This document shows positions 12,328 through 35,731 of a stretch of 64,000 bases of DNA, in pieces. The first letter of the stretch is position 1. Each line of letters begins with the position of its first letter. The DNA is taken from NCBI GenBank assembly GCA_029263195.1, contig JAJCXX010000059.1, positions 15,166-79,165 on the forward strand, in the 5' to 3' direction. The position numbers were made by a program, and so were the translations under genes. The notes below the pieces were generated by a model. It saw nothing but the letters and a program-made list of their open reading frames with translations. It was not told where the DNA came from and did no database searches. The DNA comes from Acidimicrobiales bacterium. GTDB taxonomy: Bacteria; Actinomycetota; Acidimicrobiia; Acidimicrobiales; Aldehydirespiratoraceae.

Positions 12328-13005
12328 TCATTGGAGCTGGTTGGTGATCGAACGGACGGCGTCGGCGACGGTCTCGGGGTTGGATTTCATCACGTAGTGG
12401 CGGGCCCCTTCGACCGTGGTTCGCGTCACGTTGGGGAGTTTTCTCTCCATGTAGTCGTTGGCGCCGAGGAACGCCCGGTCGTCGCTCCCCACGACCAGCG
12501 CGACCGGTATGTCGATCTCCTGAAGACGGTCGATGACCATGGAGTCGATGTGCAGGGCGATGCCCGCTGCAGTCGAGGTGACGCCGTATTTGGGGGCGCT
12601 GGCCTCGACCCGTTCGTTCCAGCTCTCGCGGGCGGCCTGGTCTCGGAACCCCGGGCCGGTCGATACCAACACGAGCCCGCTGAGAACACTGGGTCGGGTC
12701 AGGACATGGGCCATGCCCAGGTAGCCACCCAATGAGTGACCGACGAGTGTCGTCGGTCGGGTCGAGTCGGTGATCAACTCGTCGATGTCGTCGAGCACCG
12801 CCTCGCGGCCGTATGCCGCCGGATCGTCGGGGGACGGTGATTGTCCGTGACCCGGGAGATCGATGCTGACGCACCGGTGATCACCGGCGAGCAGGTCGAC
12901 AGTCGGACCCCAGACCGACGAATCGGAATCGAGGCCGTGAAGGAACAGCACGTCCGGGCCGTCGCCCCTCCGATCGATGTGAAGGAATGGTGTTCGGTCG
13001 CTCAC
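12328..13005 (-). CDS. alpha/beta-fold hydrolase
   Basis: The likely start is the GTG at 13005, preceded by GGAGG with a 6-nt spacer; the longer ORF to 13098 would overlap the upstream enoyl-CoA hydratase. It has a GHSLGG nucleophile elbow. Confidence 0.7.
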   Translation of the reverse strand: MSDRTPFLHIDRRGDGPDVLFLHGLDSDSSVWGPTVDLLAGDHRCVSIDLPGHGQSPSPDDPAAYGREAVLDDIDELITDSTRPTTLVGHSLGGYLGMAHVLTRPSVLSGLVLVSTGPGFRDQAARESWNERVEASAPKYGVTSTAAGIALHIDSMVIDRLQEIDIPVALVVGSDDRAFLGANDYMERKLPNVTRTTVEGARHYVMKSNPETVADAVRSITNQLQ

Positions 13006-13019
13006 AACTGACCTCCGGT

Positions 13020-13814
13020 TCAGCGGCCCTCGAAGATCGGCCGGCGTTTGTCCATGAACGCCTGCACCCCTTCGCGGAAATCGGCGCTCGAGTAGCAACG
13101 GGATGCGGCAGCGGCGGCCGCGGCGTCGAGGTTGTCGTGCAACAGTGAATCGACGGTGAGCTTGCCGGCACGGATCGAAAGTGGCGACAAACCGCCGATC
13201 TGATCGGCGAGAGTCGCGGTCTGGGCATCCAGGTCGTCCTTCTCGGTCAAGACATCAACGAGACCCATCCGATGGGCCTCGGTTGAGTCGACCACCCGTG
13301 CCGTGAACAGCAACAGTTTGGCGGCGCTGGGTCCGACCAGGTGGACAAGTCTTGCGGTCGCCGATCGGGGATAAGCGAGGCCCAGGCGAGCCGGCGGAAC
13401 CGAGAACAGGGCGTCGTCGGAAGCGAACCTGATGTCGGCGAGCAAGGCGATCGCCAGACCTCCGCCCATGCACGGCCCGTGGATCGAGGCTACGACCGGC
13501 ACCGGGATCGATTCGATCGCGTTCCATGCGAGCTGCTCGGATGAGTCGTAGTGCCCGGCCTTGTCGCCGGTTCGACGCTCCGGGAACTCACTGATGTCGG
13601 ATCCGGCCCCGAATGCCTCGGTGCCCGATCCCTTCAGGATCACACAGCGAATGTCGGGGTCGGACATGATCTGCTCAACCGCCCCGGGGACCTCGCGGTA
13701 CATCGCACTGTTCATGGCGTTGCGGCGCCCGGGATTGTCGATGATGAGCGTGGCGGTGGGCCCGCTCAGTTCGATTCGTATTTGTGCCACGCGGTCAGGA
13801 TTGCAGATCGACAC
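13020..13814 (-). CDS. enoyl-CoA hydratase/isomerase (crotonase) family protein
   Basis: 264 aa with the crotonase motifs NPGRRNAM and KGSGTEAFGAGSDI. Confidence 0.8.
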   Translation of the reverse strand: MSICNPDRVAQIRIELSGPTATLIIDNPGRRNAMNSAMYREVPGAVEQIMSDPDIRCVILKGSGTEAFGAGSDISEFPERRTGDKAGHYDSSEQLAWNAIESIPVPVVASIHGPCMGGGLAIALLADIRFASDDALFSVPPARLGLAYPRSATARLVHLVGPSAAKLLLFTARVVDSTEAHRMGLVDVLTEKDDLDAQTATLADQIGGLSPLSIRAGKLTVDSLLHDNLDAAAAAAASRCYSSADFREGVQAFMDKRRPIFEGR

Positions 13815-13838: not shown

Positions 13839-16800
13839 TCAGTGGGCGTGACCGACCATTCGCTCACCTTGGAGCTCACCTTGGAGTCCGGCCTCGATCT
13901 GCTCGGCCGGAGCCGGTCGGGTGAAGTAGTACCCCTGTCCGAATCGGCATCCGAGTGCCCGGAGTCGGGTGTGTTGCACCGGCAACTCGATGCCTTCGGC
14001 GATGGTGGTGGCACCCATCTCGTGCGCCAGTCGCAGAACCGTCGTGACGACGCTTGACCGTTCGTTGTCCTCGAGTTTCATGACGAACGACCGGTCGATC
14101 TTGAGGATGTCGGCCGCGAAGACCTCGGCGTATCGCAGTGTTGCGTTTCCAGTGCCGAAGTCGTCGATCGCCACCCGCAGCCCGGCATCGCGGAGCTGAT
14201 CGATTCTCTCCTTGATCAGCTCGAAGTCGTCGATCAATGCCGATTCGGTGAGCTCCAGCACGACGGCGCTGTGATCGATACCTGATTCGTCGACTGTGTT
14301 GAGGATCTCCGACACGATCCCGTCGCGCTTGAGCTGAACCGGCGAGACGTTGACGCTCACGTATATGTCGTGGCCGGCTTTGCGCCACTTGGCCGCCTGG
14401 TTGACGGCGGTGTCGAGGACCGATTGGCCGATGGGGATGATCATTCCGTTCTTCTCCGCCAGCGGAATGAAGGAGTCTGGACTGACCATTCCTCGCTTCG
14501 GATGGAACCATCTCACCAGAGCTTCGACGCCCACTGTCTTGCCCGAGGCGAGATCGACGATCGGCTGGTAGTACAGCATCAACTCGTCGTTCTCGATGGC
14601 CGCTCCGAGGGCGTTGGCGATCTCGAATCGTTCGACGGTCTCGTCGGACATACCGGCTTCGTACACAGCCCAACGGCCCTTGCCCTGGCCCTTGGCCTCG
14701 TACATGGCAACATCGGCATGACGCAGAAGGTCCTCCGGCGTCTGACAGTCGTCGTCGCTGACGGCGATTCCGACGCTCACGCCGATGATTATCTCGCGAC
14801 CCATCAGACGCACAGGGCGCGACAGCTCCTCGACCACGCGATCGGCAATGGTCGTGATGTCGGTTTCGCTGTAGACATCGGTGAGTAGCACGGCGAATTC
14901 GTCTCCGCCGAATCTTGCTGCCTTGTCCTGGAGGCGCAGGCGGCCGAGCAGACGGCTGGATATCTCCACCAGAACCTGATCGCCGGCGGCGTGTCCGAGA
15001 GAGTCGTTGACGTTCTTGAAATCGTCGATGTCGATGAAGAGAACTGCGACCTTGCCCGGTCCGGACTCATGCTCACGAAGGGATGCAGTGAGTGTGTCGG
15101 TGAACTGCACGCGACTTCCGAGGCCGGTCAGATCGTCGTGGAGGATCTGGTGACGCAGGTCGTCCTCGAGCTTCTTGCGGTCGCTGATGTCGCGAATGTT
15201 GAGCACGAGGCCCCGTACTGCGTCGTCGTCACGCCGATCGGTGAGGGTGACTTCGACGGTCCTCCACTGGCCCGACGAGTGTGCGAGTGAGACCTCCACG
15301 GTCCGACTACCGACGCTTCCGTTGGCGAGGTCGTCGCGCAGTTGCTGGATTCTACGAACCTGATCGGGGGGCAAGAGCTCGAGAACGTTTCGGCCTTGGA
15401 CTTCATCGGGTCGGAGGCCGAGAAGGTCGTAGACAGTGGGGCTGGCGTAGGTGAACGATCCCTGCTCATCGACGACGCTGATGACGTCGGAGCTGTGCTG
15501 AACCAGGCCTCGGAACCATTCCTCGCTGCGTTGCAGGCCGATCTTGGCCGCTCGTTCCTCGGTGATGTCGCGTGCTGTCATGACCACACCGCCGACTTCA
15601 TTGTCGTCGGAGAAGTCGCAGGCGGAGATCTCGAACCAGCGGTAGTCGTCTCCGGCCGTTCGAAACCGGGCGTCCATGGTGATCGGTGGCTCAGAAGGAC
15701 TGGTCGGCCGGTGCAGGTGTTCGGTGATGCGGCCGGCGTCTTCGGTGTGCGCGAGCCCGATGAGACCCGTGTCGATGATCTCGGTGCTGCTGAGGCCGAG
15801 AATCCTCGTGGCATTGGGTGAGACGAAGAGAACGCGGTCGAGTGAGTCGGTCACCATCACGACGTCGGTCGACTGCTCGACAAGGGCGTGGAGTCGTCGT
15901 TCCGACCGGCGCTTGAATGCATCTTCGCGCATGGTGATGTTGTGCAAGGCCAAGGTGGCGTGGGCGGCCATGGTCTGTAGAGCCAACTGCTGGCTGTGTT
16001 CCAGCGGTCCTCGGGGTACGACGATAATCGCGCCGTCGGACGAACCGAGGCGCACGTTGATCGACTCGGACTGCTGATCGAGTCTGATCATCTCGGAGAT
16101 CGTGGCCACGTCGTCGCCAGGGGGCCACATCGCATCCTGAAGATCGACTATGCCGCCGGAGGTCCGACTGACGACCACCGCATCCCCCTGGGAGCGAACG
16201 ACCGCGACGTGAGCGGAGTTGTCACCGAAGATGAGGCGGATCGCGCTGCCAAGTGCGCTCACCACGGAGGGAGCATCCTCGGCGGTCACGAGGTCTTGGG
16301 TGGTCTGGTTCAGTTCGTTGTCAAGTCGGGCCAGCTTGTCGCGTGCTCTCAACAGACCGACAACTCTGACCAATACGAGAGTCGACAACACGGCGGTGAA
16401 CACGAATGTGATTACGAAGCTTCCGCCAACCATGATCTGCATCAGTGCCAGCACCGGAAGCATCAGAACGCTCAGAGCCAAGCTGACAAGCCGGCTGCGT
16501 GTGAGGTCAGGACTGCTTGCCGGGGGCCGTTCGAAGAGTCCGGAGTGATCAGGTTCGTGTGCGAGCAGGGCGAACGATCCGAATCCCACGGCCGCGATCG
16601 GGATCAGGATACGGCCCCCCGGTTCACCGATCGTGTCGAGTATCGCCACCACGTCGGTGGCCAAGATGGTGAGCATCGCGGTGGCTGTGAGCCAGTAACT
16701 GCGGCTTCTCCGGGCCGGCCCGGTGGCAAGTCTGAGGGTCGTGGCAGCGATCGCCACCTCGGTGGCCGCATAGACGAGGGTGAGGGCGCGGTGCTCGACG

Positions 16801-17357
16801 GTGTACGTGCTGTCTTGGAGGTAGCCCTGCAGTACCCCGACCCAGAATGGCCCGAGCAGTGCGATGGCCACCATGACGACGTCGAGAGCATCGCCTTGCC
16901 CCACGAACGATCGGCGGGATCTCGCCATTGACAACAGCGACCAGATGACGAGGGCGTAGCCGCTGATGGCCAAGCCGTCGGCCGGACTCGGGAACGGGAA
17001 CTCCACTCCGGAAACCCCGGCGTGGACGGCCCTTGCCAGGCTGGCACCGAACAGGGCGCACGCACCTATGAACAGTTGGATCAATGCGGGGGTCTTGTCG
17101 GGTCGCCGCTTGAGAAAGACTCCGCCGGCGATCAGACACACGAACGAAAACACGACGAAAAGGAGTTCAGCCAGAAGTGTCGGCGCCAGGAAAAGCAGAG
17201 CGCCCACTGCGGCAAGCCACCAGCCAGATTTGAACCTTTGCATCGTCACGAACGAACAGTCGGCAATTCGCACGATTTGTTGAGGGGTAGGGGAAGGCTC
17301 GGTTGATCGACCACCGAGAGTGAGATTGGCGGTGCGTCGCGTGCAAGAGTTATCCAC
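13839..17357 (-). CDS. membrane-anchored PAS-PAS-GGDEF-EAL sensor (diguanylate cyclase/phosphodiesterase)
   Basis: 1172 aa by the ORF track (GTG start). An alternative start at M39 (17243) precedes the first TM helix directly. It has about 8 N-terminal TM helices, PAS repeats, an intact GGDEF motif and an intact EAL domain (EALVRW). Confidence 0.85.
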   Translation of the reverse strand: MDNSCTRRTANLTLGGRSTEPSPTPQQIVRIADCSFVTMQRFKSGWWLAAVGALLFLAPTLLAELLFVVFSFVCLIAGGVFLKRRPDKTPALIQLFIGACALFGASLARAVHAGVSGVEFPFPSPADGLAISGYALVIWSLLSMARSRRSFVGQGDALDVVMVAIALLGPFWVGVLQGYLQDSTYTVEHRALTLVYAATEVAIAATTLRLATGPARRSRSYWLTATAMLTILATDVVAILDTIGEPGGRILIPIAAVGFGSFALLAHEPDHSGLFERPPASSPDLTRSRLVSLALSVLMLPVLALMQIMVGGSFVITFVFTAVLSTLVLVRVVGLLRARDKLARLDNELNQTTQDLVTAEDAPSVVSALGSAIRLIFGDNSAHVAVVRSQGDAVVVSRTSGGIVDLQDAMWPPGDDVATISEMIRLDQQSESINVRLGSSDGAIIVVPRGPLEHSQQLALQTMAAHATLALHNITMREDAFKRRSERRLHALVEQSTDVVMVTDSLDRVLFVSPNATRILGLSSTEIIDTGLIGLAHTEDAGRITEHLHRPTSPSEPPITMDARFRTAGDDYRWFEISACDFSDDNEVGGVVMTARDITEERAAKIGLQRSEEWFRGLVQHSSDVISVVDEQGSFTYASPTVYDLLGLRPDEVQGRNVLELLPPDQVRRIQQLRDDLANGSVGSRTVEVSLAHSSGQWRTVEVTLTDRRDDDAVRGLVLNIRDISDRKKLEDDLRHQILHDDLTGLGSRVQFTDTLTASLREHESGPGKVAVLFIDIDDFKNVNDSLGHAAGDQVLVEISSRLLGRLRLQDKAARFGGDEFAVLLTDVYSETDITTIADRVVEELSRPVRLMGREIIIGVSVGIAVSDDDCQTPEDLLRHADVAMYEAKGQGKGRWAVYEAGMSDETVERFEIANALGAAIENDELMLYYQPIVDLASGKTVGVEALVRWFHPKRGMVSPDSFIPLAEKNGMIIPIGQSVLDTAVNQAAKWRKAGHDIYVSVNVSPVQLKRDGIVSEILNTVDESGIDHSAVVLELTESALIDDFELIKERIDQLRDAGLRVAIDDFGTGNATLRYAEVFAADILKIDRSFVMKLEDNERSSVVTTVLRLAHEMGATTIAEGIELPVQHTRLRALGCRFGQGYYFTRPAPAEQIEAGLQGELQGERMVGHAH

Positions 17358-17366
17358 TTTTCCACA

Positions 17367-17394
17367 GGGCCCATTGGCCTAGGCCAATAGGCCC
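17367..17394. promoter_or_regulatory. 16-bp perfect palindrome ATTGGCCTAGGCCAAT (28 bp with one mismatch pair: GGGCCCATTGGCCTAGGCCAATAGGCCC) in the divergent intergenic region
   Basis: Read directly from the sequence at 17373-17388. It lies between the start of the PAS-GGDEF-EAL gene (17357 or 17243, minus strand) and the SAM-decarboxylase-like gene (17433, plus strand). Confidence 0.4.
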
Positions 17395-17432
17395 AGATAC
17401 CATCCTTGACTCTGACTAGGACAGGAGTTGAC

Positions 17433-17774
17433 GTGAGGGACCTCGCGCCTCAGATCCACAGACAACGTCTGGTGATCGAGGGATACCCCGAAAGGCCACT
17501 CGAAGCGCACGACATCACCGACTATTTGTCGAAGATGTCCGAGGTGCTCCAAATGACCACTCTTCAGGAGCCGCTCACCAATCTCAGCTCTCGCTATGGC
17601 TGGGCCGGGTGGATCCACTGGGAGAACTCGGGCGCCCACTTCTACGCCTGGGAGAAGCCAGTCCTGTTCTTCAGCGTCGACATCTACACGTGCAAGCGGT
17701 TCGATCCGCATGCCGCAGTCGCCTTCACCCGAGAGTTTCTGGGAGCCGAGACGATCGAGTTCAAGGAATTCTGA
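17433..17774 (+). CDS. S-adenosylmethionine decarboxylase-like protein (AdoMet_dc / SpeH class 1a fold, pyruvoyl-enzyme family)
   Basis: The likely start is the GTG at 17433, preceded by AGGACAGGAG with a 5-nt spacer. It aligns with Thermotoga SpeH: LVIEGYPE matches LVAEFYEC; HWENSGAHFYAWE matches ISESHLTIHTWPE, with the pyruvoyl-precursor Ser conserved but in Asn-Ser rather than Glu-Ser; VDIYTCKRFDP matches IDLFTCGEDVDP, with the Cys conserved. Confidence 0.55.
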   Translation: MRDLAPQIHRQRLVIEGYPERPLEAHDITDYLSKMSEVLQMTTLQEPLTNLSSRYGWAGWIHWENSGAHFYAWEKPVLFFSVDIYTCKRFDPHAAVAFTREFLGAETIEFKEF

Positions 17775-17775
17775 G

Positions 17776-18633
17776 TTGGTCGACATCGACCTGACGGTTG
17801 GAGCCGAGCAACGCCGGTATCTCGTCAATGAGCTGAGATCGAGGGTTAACCGGCCCGATTCGACAAAACATTTCGGATTATATTTTGTCGCCTCGCACAG
17901 TGACTTCGCGCCGCTGGCCCGATTCGTCGAGAGATCGGTGTTCCTGAGGCAGTTCGGTAACGACGACGAGGAAATGGACCGCGAATACGGGCCCTTCGAG
18001 GCCTCCTCGTTCTTCATCCTGGCGGTTGACCATCACCAATCCGAGCCAATCGGAGCGATCCGGATCATCGAGCAATCGGTCGCCGGGTTGAAGACTCTCG
18101 CCGACATCGAGATGGAGGCGGCCTGGGGAACATCCCCCGATCAGTTCGTCTCCCAACATTGCGGAACCGACGACCCCGATCGTGTGATCGATGTGGCTAC
18201 TCTGGCCGTCAGGTCAGAGTGGAGCGCCACGGCCACGGGAATGCTCACCGCAGCAGCCCTGTACGGCGGCATATACCGAGTCACCTACGCGGTCCGATCG
18301 CGACAGGTGGTGTCGGCCCTCGACGAATCGGTCGCTGATCTGCTTCGGTCGGTCCACATACCTCTGGATCCGATCTGTGATCTCCCGGCGATCGAGTACC
18401 TGGGTTCGCCCGCCACGAGGCCCTACGTGATCCAGGTCGGCGAGGCCGAGTCGGTAATGCGCACCAATGAGACACTTCTGGGCGTGCTGATGGGCGGAAT
18501 TGTCGACAAGCAGTATTCACTTCCGCCGATCGACCTCGACAATCCCAATCCGCATCCCATCGAGATGGAACCGCAGTTCCTGGACTCCGAGCCGGCCGTG
18601 CAGCCGGCCGCCGCAAAGTCCCTGGTCGACTAG
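17776..18633 (+). CDS. hypothetical protein; LuxI/OlsB/FeeM-like N-acyltransferase fold suspected (Acetyltransf_5-like)
   Basis: The start is probably the TTG at 17776, 1 nt after the upstream stop, with an AAGGAA site 7 nt upstream. The core RSVFLRQFGNDDEEMDREYGPFEASSFFILAVDHHQSEPIGAIRIIEQS fits the autoinducer-synthase / N-acyl-amino-acid-synthase pattern R-x-V-F-…-E-x-D-x-Y-D-…-Y/F-L/I-…-I-G-x-x-R-L/I-L/I. This is a weak, recognition-only call. Confidence 0.45.
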   Translation: MVDIDLTVGAEQRRYLVNELRSRVNRPDSTKHFGLYFVASHSDFAPLARFVERSVFLRQFGNDDEEMDREYGPFEASSFFILAVDHHQSEPIGAIRIIEQSVAGLKTLADIEMEAAWGTSPDQFVSQHCGTDDPDRVIDVATLAVRSEWSATATGMLTAAALYGGIYRVTYAVRSRQVVSALDESVADLLRSVHIPLDPICDLPAIEYLGSPATRPYVIQVGEAESVMRTNETLLGVLMGGIVDKQYSLPPIDLDNPNPHPIEMEPQFLDSEPAVQPAAAKSLVD

Positions 18634-19613
18634 TCGACCCGATCCGGGTTGACCACATCGGGTTCGATATACATCGGGCGGGCCGATGGCACGACCGAGC
18701 GAACCGAGTCTTCGAGTCGATTGATAGCGCCGGCGAGTTCAGCGACGGAGTATTGGGGTGAGAACTGCACCTTGGCGGCGACCAGCAATTCGTCGGGGCC
18801 GAGATGTTGCGTGCGAAGATGGATGAGGTGCTCGACACCGTCGGTCGAGGCGATGGCCGACCTGATGAGCGCCAGGTCCTTGCGGCTGGCGCTCTCGCCG
18901 ATGAGAAGGCTCTTCATCTGAATCGCGAGCACCATAGCGATGGCGCCGAGCAGCAGCCCGATCGCCAGCGTTCCGATGCCATCGAACACGGGGGCGTCGG
19001 CAGCGACGGCAATCGTCAGAGCAACAATGGCCAGCAGCAGCCCGACCAGTGCTCCGAGATCTTCGAGAATCACGACCGGTAGCTCCGGCGATCTCGTGTC
19101 TCGAATGAACGCTGGCCAGCTTTGTCGACCCTTCAGCGGGAGAGCTTCAAGGATCGCCGTGCGAAACGAGAGCAGCTCCAGGATGACGGCCAACCCCAGC
19201 ACGACGAACGCCCAAGTCGGGCTGTCGATCTGGTGGGGATGTCGGATCTTGTCGATCCCCTCGAGAATGGCGAAGAGCGACCCGATCGAGAAGAGCACCA
19301 TCGAGACCACGAACGACCAGAAATACCTCTCGCGTGCGTACCCGAAAGGATGCTGGGCGGATGGCTCCCGCTTGGCGAGTCGTCCGCCGAGAAGAAGCAG
19401 CGCCTGATTGCCGGTGTCGGCGAAGGAGTGGATTGCTTCGGCGAGCATCGATGCCGCCCCGGTGAATGCGAACGCCAGCAACTTCGAAATGGCGATGCCG
19501 AGGTTGGCGACGAAGGCCGCCAGAATTGCCCTGGTTCCACCACTTGCACTCATCGGATCTCCGTGTCGACGACTGGTGGATGGTAGCTGCCGACTTCCAA
19601 GGCCGGCGGCCAA
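18630..19613 (-). CDS. cation diffusion facilitator (CDF) family transporter
   Basis: 327 aa with six TM helices. It has the CDF signature HSFADTGNQALLL and a C-terminal cytoplasmic domain. Confidence 0.85.
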   Translation of the reverse strand: MAAGLGSRQLPSTSRRHGDPMSASGGTRAILAAFVANLGIAISKLLAFAFTGAASMLAEAIHSFADTGNQALLLLGGRLAKREPSAQHPFGYARERYFWSFVVSMVLFSIGSLFAILEGIDKIRHPHQIDSPTWAFVVLGLAVILELLSFRTAILEALPLKGRQSWPAFIRDTRSPELPVVILEDLGALVGLLLAIVALTIAVAADAPVFDGIGTLAIGLLLGAIAMVLAIQMKSLLIGESASRKDLALIRSAIASTDGVEHLIHLRTQHLGPDELLVAAKVQFSPQYSVAELAGAINRLEDSVRSVVPSARPMYIEPDVVNPDRVD

Positions 19614-19683
19614 CCTCAGAGAGGCCCGATCGCACCCCCGACGCTATGGTCGGTCATCGAAGTCGCCGAGAGGAGCCGGTCGG

Positions 19684-20163
19684 GTGTCATCAGGTCCTGC
19701 GGTAGGGGTGCCGAGAGTCTTCTCGTCGCCAGACGAGCTATTTGATGCGGTTGGGGCCGAGCTCGGCTACAGCCAGTGGACGCTGATCGACCAGACACGC
19801 ATCGACATGTTCGCCGACGCGACTGGCGACCATCAGTGGATCCATGTCGATCCGGAGCGAGCTGCCGCCGGACCGTTTGGCGCCACGATCGCCCACGGCT
19901 ACCTGACGTTGGCGATCACCAACAAGTTCTTACCGGAGATCGTGCGAGTGGATGGCGCGTCGCTCGGGATCAACTACGGCGTCAACAAGGTTCGCTTCCC
20001 ACAGGCGGTCACGGTTGGTTCGCGAATCCGGGGTAAGGCCACGCTGACTGCATGCGATCCGATACCCGGCGGCGTGCAAACCGTGATCACGATGGTTGTC
20101 GAGATCGAGAACGAAGCCAAGCCGGCCTGCGTCAGTGAGTCGGTGAGCAGGTTCATGCATTGA
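19684..20163 (+). CDS. MaoC-like (R)-hydratase / hotdog-fold dehydratase
   Basis: The likely start is the GTG at 19684, preceded by AGGAG with an 8-nt spacer; GTG 19708 is an alternative. The motifs FADATGDHQWIHVDPERAA and FGATIAHG are characteristic of MaoC. Confidence 0.7.
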   Translation: MSSGPAVGVPRVFSSPDELFDAVGAELGYSQWTLIDQTRIDMFADATGDHQWIHVDPERAAAGPFGATIAHGYLTLAITNKFLPEIVRVDGASLGINYGVNKVRFPQAVTVGSRIRGKATLTACDPIPGGVQTVITMVVEIENEAKPACVSESVSRFMH

Positions 20164-33328: not shown

Positions 33329-35545
33329 TCAGCGCAGGTCGAGTACCTCGTCGAAGGCCTCGGACTTCTTCGGTTTCGAGAAATAGAAGCCGAGCGCCTG
33401 ATCACAGTCGAGTTCCTTGAGCACCTTCAGTTGCTCCTCGGTCTCGACCCCTTCGGCGATGACGATGAGACCGAGAGCGTGGGCAAGATCGATGATGGCC
33501 GCGACGATGGTGGCGGAATCTCGATCGGTGGCCAGCCCGGCCACGAACGACTGATCGATCTTGAGCACGTCGAGCGGCAGCCGGTGAAGATACGCGAACT
33601 GCGACCAGCCAGTTCCGAAATCGTCGATCCCGAGGCTGATCCCTAGAGCGCGGAGTTGGTCGAGCTGATCGGCCGCCGAATTGGCATCGCCCATCAGCGC
33701 AGATTCCGTGATCTCCATGCAGATCTCGTCGGTGGTGATGCCGGCATCCGCGATGGCACGTTCGATGAATCCGACGAGATCGGGGTCTCCGAGTTGACGA
33801 CCCGACAGATTGACCCAAATACGAATCGGCTCGCTCTCGGGCTCACGGAAGAGCCGCCAGGCCGCGGCCTGGCGACAGGCCTCGGTGATGACCCACTTCC
33901 CGAGGTCGACGATGATGCCCGACTCCTCGGCCAACGGAATGAACTCGCCGGGAGGCACGATGCGCCCGTCGGGGCGTTGCCACCTGACCAGCGCCTCGAA
34001 TCCCACGATGCGTCCCGAGTCGAGATCGAGTTCGGGTTGGTAATGGAGTATGAGTTCGCCGTTGGTGACGGCCCGTCGAAGGGCCTCTTCGGTGTCGATG
34101 CGTTCGAGAGCGAGGCTCTGATCAACTTCGTCGTGGATCGCGAATCGATTCCGTCCGCCGTGCTTGGCTTCGTACATGGCGGTGTCGGCGTTGTCGAGCA
34201 GTTGGGTGGCGTTGTCGGCTCCGAGCGAGGTGGCAATGCCGATCGATGTGCCGAGATTGACGGTGTGGCCCCCGAGTACGAACGGCTGGTCGAACGCTCC
34301 GAGGATCCGGCGAGCCACCGCGGTTGCGCCTCGTGCCCCGTCGGTGCCGGCGCAGAGCATCACGAATTCGTCGCCGCCCAATCGGGCGAGGGTGTCTCCG
34401 GGGCGGACTATCGCCGACAACCGTTCCGACACCTTCGACAAGGCGGTGTCGCCGGCCTGGTGCCCGAGGGTGTCGTTGATGATCTTGAATCCGTCGAGGT
34501 CGATGAACAACACGGCGATGGGTTGCAGCGATCGTCGACTGACCGCGAAGGCCTGGTCGAGACGATCGAGAAGGAGCGCCTTGTTCGGGAGCCCGGTGAG
34601 CTCGTCGTGGAACGCCTGCTTGATGAGGCTCTGCTCGGTTTCGCGTTGCTGGGTGATATCGCGCCCTGACGATTGCAGCTGAGTGACATCGCCCGAGGAG
34701 TCGCGAATCGGGGTGAGAGCCGTCTCGAACCAGCGGTAGGAGCCGTTTCGGTGCCGGAGACGATGACGGAATCGTGTGGGTTCGCCGCCTCGTCGGGCCG
34801 CATCGCTGAGGGCCTGGACGAGAGCATCGCGGGTGTTGGCGTGGGAGAGGTCGACGGGGTGGGATCCGGCGAGCACCGCAGGGTCGAGGTCGAGTAGTCG
34901 ACGCACCGAAGGCGAGACGTAGGTGAAGGTCCCGTCGGGCTGGTGCAGACACACCAGGTCGGAGGTGTATTCGGCCATCGCCTGGAAGATGCTCTCGGCT
35001 TCGGCCAGCGCTTGGGTGGTGGCTTCGATGATTGCTTCGGTCTCGCGCTCATCGGCCAGAGTGCGAAGCTCGGCCAGAAGCATCGATATGGCGCCGTCTG
35101 AGTCGGTGACCGGGGTCAACTCGACACGGATGGGCCGACTCGAGTTGTCGCCGGTGTCGATGGTGCGAGAGCCGGCGACCCCGGTGGATGCTTCGTCGAT
35201 CAGCGGAGCGAGGATGGTGGCGGGATCGGCGGTGCCCCACAAGGGTGCCACCCAGAGCGGTCGGCCGAGCAGGCTGTCTCGTGTGGCCCCGAGCGAGTCG
35301 GCTCGGTCGTTGCAGTCGAGTACGGTGCCGTCGAGGTCGACGAGAAGTGCCGCGTCGGTGAGTCGGGTGAGTGCGATTCGGGACTGGAGTTCGCGACTCA
35401 GATCGTCGAGATCGGGATCGGTGAGAGTGGCCAGATTCTGTAGCACCGACAAGCGGAGTTCGTTGGTTGTCTGAGTCGTGGGGCTGGCCTCGTCGGGCAC
35501 ATCTTCTCCTGCGTTGGCGGGTCGGTCCCGCTGGGAAAATGACAC
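33329..35545 (-). CDS. cytoplasmic PAS-PAS-GGDEF-EAL protein (diguanylate cyclase/phosphodiesterase)
   Basis: 738 aa with an intact GGDEF motif (LGGDEFVML), an intact EAL domain (EALVRWQRPDG…) and two PAS-like regions. Confidence 0.85.
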   Translation of the reverse strand: MSFSQRDRPANAGEDVPDEASPTTQTTNELRLSVLQNLATLTDPDLDDLSRELQSRIALTRLTDAALLVDLDGTVLDCNDRADSLGATRDSLLGRPLWVAPLWGTADPATILAPLIDEASTGVAGSRTIDTGDNSSRPIRVELTPVTDSDGAISMLLAELRTLADERETEAIIEATTQALAEAESIFQAMAEYTSDLVCLHQPDGTFTYVSPSVRRLLDLDPAVLAGSHPVDLSHANTRDALVQALSDAARRGGEPTRFRHRLRHRNGSYRWFETALTPIRDSSGDVTQLQSSGRDITQQRETEQSLIKQAFHDELTGLPNKALLLDRLDQAFAVSRRSLQPIAVLFIDLDGFKIINDTLGHQAGDTALSKVSERLSAIVRPGDTLARLGGDEFVMLCAGTDGARGATAVARRILGAFDQPFVLGGHTVNLGTSIGIATSLGADNATQLLDNADTAMYEAKHGGRNRFAIHDEVDQSLALERIDTEEALRRAVTNGELILHYQPELDLDSGRIVGFEALVRWQRPDGRIVPPGEFIPLAEESGIIVDLGKWVITEACRQAAAWRLFREPESEPIRIWVNLSGRQLGDPDLVGFIERAIADAGITTDEICMEITESALMGDANSAADQLDQLRALGISLGIDDFGTGWSQFAYLHRLPLDVLKIDQSFVAGLATDRDSATIVAAIIDLAHALGLIVIAEGVETEEQLKVLKELDCDQALGFYFSKPKKSEAFDEVLDLR

Positions 35546-35731
35546 GGGATTTCCCGCGTGGAAAAGGTAGCCACCACGAACCGTGGGGCGGTGGATGCCG
35601 ACGACGCGCCGCGCGATTTGCGACCACGCTGAGCGGTTTCAGGAAGTAGGCCCGGTGGGCTGGGACGATCGAGGTCCCGACACTATTGTCGCTGCGTCGA
35701 CACGATTCGGAACGCAACAGGAGATGACTCG

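Follow-up and report, generated by a model that had tools for sequence, protein, structure and literature searches.

Two adjacent genes in the 64-kb stretch of Acidimicrobiales DNA analysed here (the window), coding for a protein with the fold of S-adenosylmethionine decarboxylase (AdoMetDC) (ORF1, 17433-17774, forward strand, 113 aa) and for a GNAT-fold protein of the LuxI/FeeM clade (ORF2, 17776-18633, forward strand, 285 aa, TTG start), constitute a conserved, coupled cassette which recurs across phyla and is not a local oddity. ORF2 begins 1 nt past the TGA stop codon of ORF1 (17772-17774), and its ribosome-binding site as read from the sequence (AAGGAA, 17763-17768, forward strand) lies inside ORF1 near its 3' end and precedes the TTG codon at 17776 by 7 nt, as given in a preliminary description of this DNA. 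Measured over 60 loci, the distance from the stop of ORF1 to the start of ORF2 peaks at -4, -1 and +1 nt, and its median is -1 nt. An ORF2 homolog is encoded immediately 3' of ORF1 in all eight genome loci that include upstream DNA, the Acidimicrobiales loci being syntenic over the whole region and thus not independent of one another, and in 56 of the 68 metagenome loci picked by ORF1 alone, the metagenome set (80 loci) comprising those that resemble the query most, with many of the low-GC ones possibly mutual close relatives. A natural ORF1-ORF2 fusion (P0157) is also found on nine contigs. The coupling originally proposed for the two genes is thus strengthened by adjacency across phyla, by stop/start overlap or abutment and by gene fusion. 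The pair is present in Acidimicrobiales, Jatrophihabitans and Saccharibacteria, the last including a MAG with the pair (hhalign probability 99.8%), and the ORF1 proteins of Saccharibacteria and Actinomycetota are 60-70% identical. The high-GC Gram-positive setting described previously is not exclusive, as Saccharibacteria carry the cassette beside a histidine kinase and a receiver. In keeping with the initial view of an undescribed module, no description of the pair was found in the literature and there is no Pfam or NCBIfam model for the ORF2 family. What is new is the scale at which the pair recurs in Actinomycetota and Saccharibacteria, usually beside a membrane sensor.

The two proteins may act as decarboxylase and N-acyltransferase and together yield an N-acyl amine tied to the adjacent sensor, a reading which we place somewhat below an even chance and whose chemistry we infer. 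It is built on the observed folds of both proteins, the conserved Ser and Cys residues of ORF1 and the conserved charged core of ORF2, together with the observed gene coupling, the natural fusion and a sensor neighbourhood that recurs. Self-cleavage of the ORF1 proenzyme at N65|S66 would leave an N-terminal pyruvoyl group, and the processed enzyme would decarboxylate an amino-acid-type substrate, with SAM or a basic amino acid as candidates, to a primary amine. ORF2 would acylate this amine with acyl-ACP or acyl-CoA as donor, and the resulting N-acyl amine would most likely be detected by the neighbouring polytopic sensor, by analogy with CqsA/CqsS and LuxM/LuxN. This sensor is a GGDEF-EAL enzyme in Actinomycetota, whereas Saccharibacteria-like low-GC genomes have a histidine kinase there, accompanied by a stand-alone receiver. 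The cassette may thereby produce a new bacterial signal molecule.

ORF1 has the AdoMetDC fold and matches PF02675 above the gathering score. The preliminary description had placed it with class 1a SpeH; the fold holds, but the type is that of class 1b, represented by Thermotoga maritima and Bacillus subtilis, rather than class 1a, the Escherichia coli type (PMC10407285). The sequence motifs listed at that time are all present, with LVxExYxE corresponding to L13-E20, an N-terminal strand shared with class 1b T. maritima AdoMetDC (TM0655, PDB 1vr7/1tlu), followed by the pyruvoyl-type Ser and by Y85-T86-C87. In a profile alignment with the T. maritima enzyme, of low hhalign probability and resting on its agreement with the fold match, S66 falls on the pyruvoyl-forming S63 and C87 (Y-T-C-K) on the catalytic C83 (F-T-C-G). 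Both residues are invariant, S66 across 30 ORF1 homologs, and the ORF1 model places S66 in the hairpin turn that joins strands 56-63 and 66-73. The dipeptide formed by Glu62 and Ser in T. maritima is replaced by N65-S66, as the preliminary description had stated for the window, and by Thr, Asn or Ser before the Ser across the family. The counterpart of T. maritima His68, a residue listed as essential for processing and catalysis (PMC10407285), is an invariant Tyr (Y71) in this low-confidence alignment, while an invariant His (H69) occurs on the same strand two residues earlier. The Tyr at this position had previously been overlooked. S66, H69, Y71 and C87 are among the invariant residues, and the distinct invariant motif GWAGWIHWE-x-SGAHFYAW makes the active-site strand rich in Trp, His and Tyr. 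Autonomous processing of ORF1 is uncertain, given the Tyr at the His68 position and the Asn, Thr or Ser in place of Glu before the Ser.

Despite the shared fold, ORF1 is only 20% identical to T. maritima AdoMetDC, scores 21.7 bits against the TIGR03330 equivalog cut-off of 75.65 bits, and its family profile retrieves none of the AdoMetDC sequences in the PDB at E <= 10. Its partner is a GNAT gene rather than polyamine genes, and a phmmer search with a single E. coli SpeE query gave no spermidine synthase match in the 64-kb window and 100 related loci (665 kb of local flanks). Identity with the SpeH/SpeD equivalog was rejected on the TIGR03330 score, the change of His68 to Tyr and the lack of a nearby spermidine synthase, and for the same reasons SAM, invoked in the preliminary description, is not secured as the substrate of ORF1. 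Judged from its sequences, the ORF1 family forms a highly conserved branch that has diverged deeply within the AdoMetDC fold and whose processing site is altered, which bears on the maturation of pyruvoyl enzymes.

These features also weigh on a polyamine role, in which ORF1 would be a neofunctionalised SpeD homolog decarboxylating Arg, Orn or SAM to agmatine, putrescine or dcSAM, ORF2 a polyamine N-acetyl- or acyltransferase that sets the pools, and the sensor neighbourhood a polyamine-responsive signalling system. NspS-MbaA of Vibrio cholerae is a known case of polyamines acting on a GGDEF-EAL protein. Like SpeDA (arginine decarboxylase) and SpeDC (ornithine decarboxylase), ORF1 occurs without spermidine synthase, and SpeD homologs with such activities are found widely, Actinomycetota and the candidate phyla radiation included (PMC10407285). 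The reading is nonetheless improbable, as ORF1 is remote from characterised SpeD, SpeDA and SpeDC by both the equivalog score and the PDB search, has a distinct active-site strand in which His68 is not conserved, and lacks spermidine synthase in its surroundings, while ORF2 is nearer to long-chain acyl synthases than to SpeG/SSAT-type acetyltransferases.

The closest structural matches of ORF2 are FeeM and the acyl-homoserine lactone (AHL) synthases LasI, BjaI, TofI, MesI, RpaI and EsaI, so that both a FeeM-like and an AHL-synthase fold are found, with FeeM (TM 0.74) matching as well as or better than the AHL synthases. FeeM and the PF13444-type enzymes, which are OlsB-like and include the exosortase-associated acyltransferases of TIGR03694, use acyl-ACP to N-acylate amines or amino acids. 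Weak matches to PF13444, PF21926 and TIGR03694 occur across the ORF2 family; those to PF13444 are seen in 16 of 25 close relatives (best E 8.5e-5; gathering score 22.4 bits), the distant family member P0250 scores 23.3 bits, and ORF2 of the window itself has no Pfam match. Relative to FeeM-type enzymes, ORF2 differs in a conserved C-terminal extension of approximately 85 residues with an invariant YLGS motif and in always being paired with a decarboxylase-fold gene; we know of no FeeM-type enzyme with such a partner. The family comprises approximately 900 clusters at 50% identity, with ORF1 homologs numbering in the thousands, and E52, F56, F60, Y71, D85, R96, K106, D110, D139, T142, D183, Y208 and S211 are near-invariant in ORF2. 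As a LuxI/FeeM-like GNAT family in its own right, it is of interest independently of the cassette, and ORF2 is putatively an acyl-ACP/CoA-dependent N-acyltransferase.

The earlier placement of ORF2 in the LuxI/OlsB/FeeM branch thus stands for the fold but not for membership of the LuxI family. No match to PF00765 was obtained at E <= 1 for ORF2 or any of 24 relatives. Of the conserved LasI residues, which we take to be R23, F27, W33, R70, E101, S103 and R104, three have equivalents among 169 ORF2-family members, namely R70 (R96, 100%), E101 (D139, 98%) and F27 (F56, 96%), whereas the SAM-site residues R23 and W33 are replaced by E52 and N62, and S103 and R104 by A141 and T142, in an hhalign alignment of low probability (12.6%) that is nevertheless collinear with the fold match. 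ORF2 was accordingly rejected as a LuxI-family member on the profile result and on these low-confidence replacements, and the SAM-linked, AHL-type chemistry suggested previously is not indicated. A true AHL-type synthase, using SAM and acyl-ACP or acyl-CoA in the manner of LuxI with ORF1 supplying or modifying a SAM-derived moiety, would suit the AHL synthases among the best structural matches and the SAM-binding enzyme fold of ORF1. It is, however, very improbable in view of the same profile and residue results, the equal or better match to FeeM, which does not use SAM, and the missing carboxylate of dcSAM, which precludes lactonisation. As in LuxI systems (LasI, BjaI, TofI, EsaI), a cognate-looking signalling protein is encoded beside ORF2; here it is a membrane sensor, not a regulator of the LuxR type.

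The GNAT fold of ORF2 and the altered processing site of ORF1 together raise a serious rival, in which ORF2 would be a partner that triggers or regulates maturation of the ORF1 proenzyme, perhaps under the control of a ligand such as acyl-CoA or acyl-ACP, with no acyl transfer in the pathway and only a decarboxylated amine as product. In E. coli, activation of the pyruvoyl enzyme PanD depends on the GNAT-fold protein PanZ, and HdcB has the same activator role toward histidine decarboxylase (PMC3496974). This precedent was absent from the preliminary description. An ORF1 lacking a His68 equivalent may need help to process, and the tight translational coupling and natural fusion would fit a stoichiometric protein partnership. 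The likeness to PanD-PanZ is one of the type of partners, no homology to either protein being shown; the PanD fold is a double-psi beta-barrel, unlike that of ORF1, and PanZ is a small 127-aa GNAT confined to gamma-proteobacteria whose gene forms no operon pair with panD. ORF2 instead groups structurally with true synthases (FeeM, LasI, BjaI) rather than with small regulatory GNATs, and its retained equivalents of LasI R70 and E101 and its dense invariant charged residues resemble an active site. No ORF2 homolog is nearby in 11 of the 68 metagenome ORF1 loci, which indicates that ORF1 can work alone or with a partner encoded elsewhere, and an ORF1 with its Ser and Cys may use His69 or Tyr71 for processing in place of His68. 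The loci that lack ORF2 weigh on the two-enzyme reading as well. An activator role for ORF2 is consequently considered rather unlikely, and N-acyl transfer by ORF2 is the preferred reading.

The neighbour expected to detect the N-acyl amine is encoded head-to-head with the pair (13839-17243, reverse strand), and the membrane PAS-GGDEF-EAL enzyme announced in the preliminary description is, by Pfam, a PAS-PAS-GGDEF-EAL protein (EAL 4.9e-71, GGDEF 2.2e-43, PAS 1.3e-25). In this sensor with c-di-GMP output, approximately seven transmembrane (TM) segments are predicted within the first ~300 aa; a cytoplasmic linker domain comes next, then two PAS domains, a GGDEF domain with an RxxD I-site and an EAL domain. 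ATG 17243 is the likely start, the open frame extends to GTG 17357, and the gene is called at 1134 aa in the near-identical contig L001. In L003-L005 and L008-L010 the pair likewise diverges from an ortholog of this sensor gene, and the c-di-GMP link is conserved in three gene arrangements, with a GGDEF-EAL gene that is divergent in the window, L003-L005, L008-L011, L030 and L047, convergent in L036, L042, L048, L055, L057, L067 and L092, and co-directional in L093 and L095-L098. The low-GC loci show a fixed order in which a receiver gene lies ~450 nt upstream of the pair and a histidine kinase gene after ORF2, the receiver being a stand-alone Response_reg protein of 122 aa without a DNA-binding output domain. 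In total, 24 of the 31 loci with enough flanking DNA contain a two-component or GGDEF/EAL gene within ~4 kb, which places a polytopic sensor that has a signalling output next to the putative synthase genes. Between 7 and 10 TM segments are predicted per sensor, and the N-terminal modules of the two sensor types, kinase and GGDEF-EAL, align at an hhalign probability of 44% (E 2.4e-4), with common ancestry unproven.

In the CqsA/CqsS and LuxM/LuxN systems of Vibrio, the synthase genes likewise adjoin a polytopic sensor kinase that binds the hydrophobic product, and CqsA uses acyl-CoA and a SAM-derived amine. The present genes have no sequence relationship to these, the putative synthase is in two parts (decarboxylase fold and GNAT), and the output of the Actinomycetota sensor is c-di-GMP turnover rather than a phosphorelay. 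A bolder proposal, which we regard as unlikely, is that the cassette makes a new class of acylated, decarboxylated amine autoinducers for 7TM-type receptors, shared by Saccharibacteria and their host phylum Actinomycetota, with the receptors feeding c-di-GMP turnover in the latter and a histidine kinase and receiver in the former. Saccharibacteria are episymbionts living on Actinomycetota, and this lifestyle and the degree of ORF1 identity make a signalling language common to an ultrasmall parasite and its host phylum possible. To our knowledge, diffusible-signal systems are poorly known in Actinomycetota beyond butyrolactones and essentially unknown in Saccharibacteria and other bacteria of the candidate phyla radiation, while the ligands of many membrane GGDEF-EAL proteins are a long-standing gap in c-di-GMP biology. 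The cassette pairs candidate ligand-making enzymes with a specific sensor over two phyla, and is testable.

Several other genes are found close to the pair. Genes coding for an enoyl-CoA hydratase (ECH) and a MaoC dehydratase occur near it in the window and in relatives, and an AMP-binding acyl-activating enzyme, which would suit a supply of acyl groups to ORF2, is encoded immediately after ORF2 in locus L094. As described previously, a Cation_efflux (CDF) gene is convergent with ORF2; the two overlap at the ORF2 stop codon. Inclusion of the CDF gene in the module was rejected, as it is present in some relatives and absent in others.

Since the support for the sensor link is adjacency, sensing of the product and control of the enzymes are not separable. 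The cassette could conversely yield a membrane aminolipid or other envelope component, with the sensor controlling the enzymes through c-di-GMP or a phosphorylated receiver. A low-GC receiver without a DNA-binding domain must work through contact with another protein, ORF1 and ORF2 being possible targets, and long-chain N-acyl lipids are the products of FeeM and of OlsB-type PF13444 enzymes, the structural relatives of ORF2. The ECH and MaoC genes would fit this scheme but may reflect mere synteny; no c-di-GMP-binding motif or receiver-docking feature was found in ORF1 or ORF2, and polytopic 7TM-like modules suit the detection of a hydrophobic ligand at least equally. Control of the enzymes by the sensor is thus a doubtful alternative to product sensing, the reading retained here.

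The region between the divergent genes (17244-17432) contains blocks conserved among Acidimicrobiales in an alignment of eight orthologous intergenic regions, including TTTTCCACAGGGCC and a TAnnnT -10-like box (TACCAT, 17398-17403). A consensus scan of this region returned no sigma-70 site and Rfam no family match. TTGGCC (17374-17379) is situated 18 nt upstream of TACCAT, and the two boxes may form the ORF1 promoter, as far as can be judged from their sequence. The near-perfect palindrome of the preliminary description is recovered as a 28-bp element (GGGCCCATTGGCCT/AGGCCAATAGGCCC, 17367-17394) with two 14-nt arms that are 93% complementary. This palindrome, a candidate operator, overlaps the ORF1 promoter at its putative -35 box and spacer, and degenerate palindromes occur at the equivalent position in L003 and L005.

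The pair consists of two genes on the forward strand. ORF1, coding for a 113-aa protein with the S-adenosylmethionine decarboxylase (AdoMetDC) fold, runs from a GTG at 17433, with AGGAG five bases 5' of it, to a TGA stop codon (17772-17774). The open-reading-frame listing includes an alternative TTG start farther 5' (17406); the GTG is preferred because nearly all homologs are 113-116 aa long and begin with MRDLAP or MKDLAP. ORF2 (17776-18633), coding for a 285-aa protein with a GNAT fold, begins with a TTG one base past the ORF1 stop codon and ends with a TAG (18631-18633); direct reading of the sequence places AAGGAA upstream of its start, at 17763-17768 on the same strand. A near-identical public contig has both genes called in the same way. 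Divergent from ORF1 on the reverse strand is a gene (13839-17243) for which Pfam identifies a PAS-PAS-GGDEF-EAL architecture; its frame is open up to 17357, and homologs and the public gene call point to the ATG at 17243 as its start. The 189-nt spacer between the divergent genes contains a 28-bp palindrome (17367-17394; 93% complementary), and a CDF exporter gene (Pfam Cation_efflux) converges on ORF2. All the elements named in the preliminary description are present in the window. ORF2 and the CDF gene terminate within a perfect 14-bp palindrome, GTCGACTAGTCGAC (18625-18638), where their stop codons overlap (CTAG, 18630-18633); both proteins have a Val-Asp C-terminus, and the space between the two genes is insufficient for a terminator.

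ORF1 scores above the Pfam AdoMet_dc threshold (35.6 bits; threshold 25) but far below the cut-off of the NCBIfam equivalog for the Bacillus subtilis-type AdoMetDC (21.7; cut-off 75.65), and it is not an ortholog of SpeH. Sequence searches of the PDB with ORF1, ORF2 and both family profiles returned nothing useful, with only chance RRM matches for ORF1 and no AdoMetDC retrieved by its family profile, and a comparison of folds was therefore needed. The fold is of class 1b rather than the class 1a originally assigned, and ORF1 is a distinct, deep branch of it. In a low-confidence alignment to Thermotoga maritima AdoMetDC, S66 corresponds to the pyruvoyl serine S63, C87 to C83, N65 to E62 and Y71 to H68. 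Residues S63, H68 and C83 are essential for processing and catalysis (PMC10407285), and two of the three are thus retained in ORF1. The conserved Ser and Cys noted previously are therefore borne out, but the position of H68 is occupied by an invariant Tyr in the ORF1 family, which an invariant His (H69) precedes by two residues on the same strand. This family is large (at least 2288 matches in the homolog search, comprising every candidate scored) and very conserved, the motif GWAGWIHWE-[T/N/S]-SGAHFYAW-[E/D]-x-P-x-LFFSVDIYTCK being nearly constant among sequences labelled Acidimicrobiales, Jatrophihabitans and Saccharibacteria. As an atypical AdoMetDC branch of this depth, it appears to be undescribed. 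Neither the window nor 665 kb of related loci contained a detectable spermidine synthase, and the spermidine pathway was rejected as an explanation, there being no SpeE nearby. Ordinary polyamine metabolism, with ORF1 as a neofunctionalised SpeD-type ADC or ODC and ORF2 as a polyamine acetyltransferase, has a precedent in the neofunctionalised SpeD-type enzymes already known (PMC10407285), yet it is improbable given that ORF1 is so divergent, that ORF2 has the character of a long-chain synthase and that no polyamine genes lie nearby. The Acaryochloris marina plasmid pREC2 (locus L099, 4908-6357) encodes a distant relative of ORF1 (33% identity; hhalign 99.5% to the family), which retains the MRDLAP..., DSG and FTCK motifs and whose gene lies directly 3' of one for a 350-aa GNAT. 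This GNAT was dismissed as a relative of ORF2 (hhalign probability 0.05%), and the locus may represent a second, independent coupling of an ORF1-type decarboxylase fold to a GNAT.

The ORF2 protein of the window has no match in Pfam, PF00765 included, and only a weak match in NCBIfam, to TIGR03694 (E 1.6e-4). Weak matches to PF13444 (Acetyltransf_5) were obtained for 16 of its 25 closest relatives, and a match to FeeM for one. In a low-confidence alignment, collinear with the fold match, the near-invariant residues F56, R96 and D139 of ORF2 lie at the positions of F27, R70 and E101 of LasI, while R23, W33, S103 and R104 of LasI correspond to E52, N62, A141 and T142. With these four positions changed in that low-confidence alignment and no PF00765 match, membership of ORF2 in the LuxI family is not supported, and true N-acylhomoserine lactone synthesis by the cassette is highly unlikely. 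The most fitting description of ORF2 is a new family within the LuxI/FeeM structural clade, for which neither Pfam nor NCBIfam holds a model; its C-terminal extension is conserved and carries a YLGS motif. A word-indexed search yielded 26 homologs, all in Acidimicrobiales-like MAGs, a small family size that proved to be an artefact of search sensitivity, as an exhaustive profile search recovered 896 clusters at 50% identity (303 at E <= 1e-30). The genome scan for ORF2 relatives used the 12 closest sequences as query. One 670-aa protein (P0285) has two ORF2-like domains in tandem and no Pfam match.

An ORF1 homolog lies immediately 5' of ORF2 in all eight Acidimicrobiales-like loci having upstream DNA, evidence that is weakened because the entire neighbourhood is syntenic. 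In a Saccharibacteria MAG, the ORF1 homolog shares a 4-nt overlap with a gene for a 278-aa protein which has no Pfam match and is homologous to ORF2 (hhalign 99.8%, E 7e-30). Among 80 metagenome loci collected by ORF1 alone, the count covered the 68 that extend 500 nt or more downstream, and an ORF2-family gene occurs immediately 3' of ORF1 on the same strand in 56; of the remainder, one has such a gene 3 kb upstream and the other 11 lack it. The ORF1 stop codon and the first ORF2 start codon are only a few bases apart (60 loci; median gap -1 nt; peaks at -4, -1 and +1), a pattern that is the signature of translational coupling, and a continuous ORF1-ORF2 fusion (P0157) is found on nine contigs. 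The gene coupling anticipated in the preliminary description is thereby substantiated, and functional coupling of ORF1 and ORF2 is concluded with high confidence. No description of this pairing or of its fusion was found in the literature. Coupling would also be expected if ORF2 were an activator assisting the maturation of ORF1, in the manner of the GNAT-fold PanZ of Escherichia coli, which is needed for activation of the pyruvoyl enzyme PanD, and of HdcB, which likewise activates histidine decarboxylase (PMC3496974). The lack of a His68 equivalent in ORF1 makes partner-assisted maturation credible; ORF2, however, resembles true synthases and retains a catalytic-looking core, and a purely activating role is unlikely, if slightly less so than polyamine metabolism. 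In a variant locus, L076 (553-5138), the order is a receiver, ORF1, a convergent gene for a 301-aa protein with a weak match to LPG_synthase_C (an aminoacyl-transferase with a GNAT-like fold), a gene for a 280-aa protein without family and a histidine kinase, and a different transferase may stand in place of ORF2. In the Jatrophihabitans MAG locus L011 (8445-9786), ORF1 is followed by two LOG-family genes (Lysine_decarbox, PF03641), and the ORF2 homolog lies 2.5 kb upstream, beyond the GGDEF-EAL gene.

In the sensor protein of the window, about seven TM segments are predicted within the first 300 residues, and the GGDEF and EAL domains are both intact, the former with an RxxD I-site. Related loci were scanned with its GGDEF, EAL and PAS segments and with the Saccharibacteria receiver and kinase. 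Low-GC loci (0.33-0.53) encode a stand-alone receiver, divergent and about 450 nt upstream of the pair, and a polytopic histidine kinase of about 720 aa which begins directly past ORF2. In high-GC loci (0.65-0.73), the gene adjoining the pair codes for a membrane GGDEF-EAL protein, and three distinct arrangements occur: divergent and upstream (the window, its relatives, the Jatrophihabitans locus L011, L030 and L047), convergent and downstream (L036, L042, L048, L055, L057, L067 and L092) or co-directional and downstream (L093, and 3' of the fusion gene in L095-L098). A two-component or GGDEF/EAL gene lies within about 4 kb of the pair in 24 of the 31 loci with sufficient flank on both sides, and Ser/Thr protein kinases are encoded nearby in two of the loci that lack one. 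Loci L094 (5810-7654 and 890-2692) and L015 (4165-5562) contain the pair with no GGDEF/EAL or two-component neighbour and with Hanks-type Ser/Thr kinase genes nearby. Searches of the literature found no account of this link, spanning Actinomycetota and Saccharibacteria, between the pair and sensors of the kinase or c-di-GMP kind.

The sensors near the pair have seven to ten predicted TM segments; the kinase matches GAF weakly, and one GGDEF-EAL protein has a weak match to 7TMR-DISM. Long and short GGDEF-EAL proteins share a homologous N-terminal module (hhalign 97%). Pairwise BLAST gave no match between the GGDEF-EAL and kinase N-termini, and the profile-profile comparison (hhalign 44%, E 2.4e-4, 345 collinear columns) is at most suggestive of shared ancestry. 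A homolog search with the module of the window sensor recovered two proteins, one of which (P0297, 792 aa; 26% identity over 98% of the query) joins it to PAS and class III nucleotide cyclase (PF00211) domains with no GGDEF-EAL; apparently, one and the same input module feeds different second-messenger outputs. Another PAS-PAS-GGDEF-EAL gene, shorter than the first, occurs about 15 kb away in the window (33332-35638, reverse strand). In L003, L006, L007, L009 and L010, a paralog of about 750 aa is encoded just 3' of the pair, or past the CDF gene if present, so that c-di-GMP enzymes flank the cassette on both sides.

Taken together, the pair very probably forms a coupled two-protein enzyme unit tied to membrane signal transduction. 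A fuller scheme, which fits most of the data and is put forward tentatively, is that ORF1 would cleave itself at N65|S66 to become a pyruvoyl decarboxylase making a primary amine, that ORF2 would N-acylate this amine from acyl-ACP or acyl-CoA, and that the N-acyl amine would be linked to the adjoining membrane sensor, in the simplest case by serving as its ligand. Observed here are the folds, the conserved residues, the gene coupling and the neighbourhood; processing, substrate, acyl donor, product and the direction of the sensor relationship are inferred. The AMP-binding acyl-activating enzyme encoded directly 3' of ORF2 in L094 fits the need for an acyl donor. Synthases are paired with polytopic sensor kinases in cqsA/cqsS and luxM/luxN, where, as proposed for the cassette, the synthase genes lie beside that of a membrane sensor. 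Both fold superfamilies and this design are known already; the interest of the cassette is as a candidate ligand-sensor pair open to direct testing. The relationship could run the other way, with the sensor regulating ORF1 and ORF2, for example for aminolipid remodelling; the receiver, having no DNA-binding domain, is compatible with such an output role, which we nevertheless consider improbable.

The 28-bp palindrome overlaps a plausible -35 box, TTGGCC, and an 18-nt spacer, with a TAnnnT -10 box kept in relatives, and degenerate palindromes occur at the equivalent position in L003 and L005. It may be an operator, and the two boxes may form a promoter. A consensus scan of the control region found no sigma-70 promoter or terminator, and a search of Rfam matched neither a riboswitch nor any other family. 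The CDF exporter, present in some relatives, is missing from L003, L008 and L010 while the pair and sensor persist; it was rejected as a component of the module and is a neighbour, contrary to the link initially drawn. Genes for alpha/beta-hydrolase, enoyl-CoA hydratase and MaoC-dehydratase flank the locus (12328-13814 and 19408-20163) and are syntenic in relatives, and enoyl-CoA hydratases are also encoded near the Jatrophihabitans copy of the pair. These neighbours could reflect plain synteny or the supply of acyl chains.
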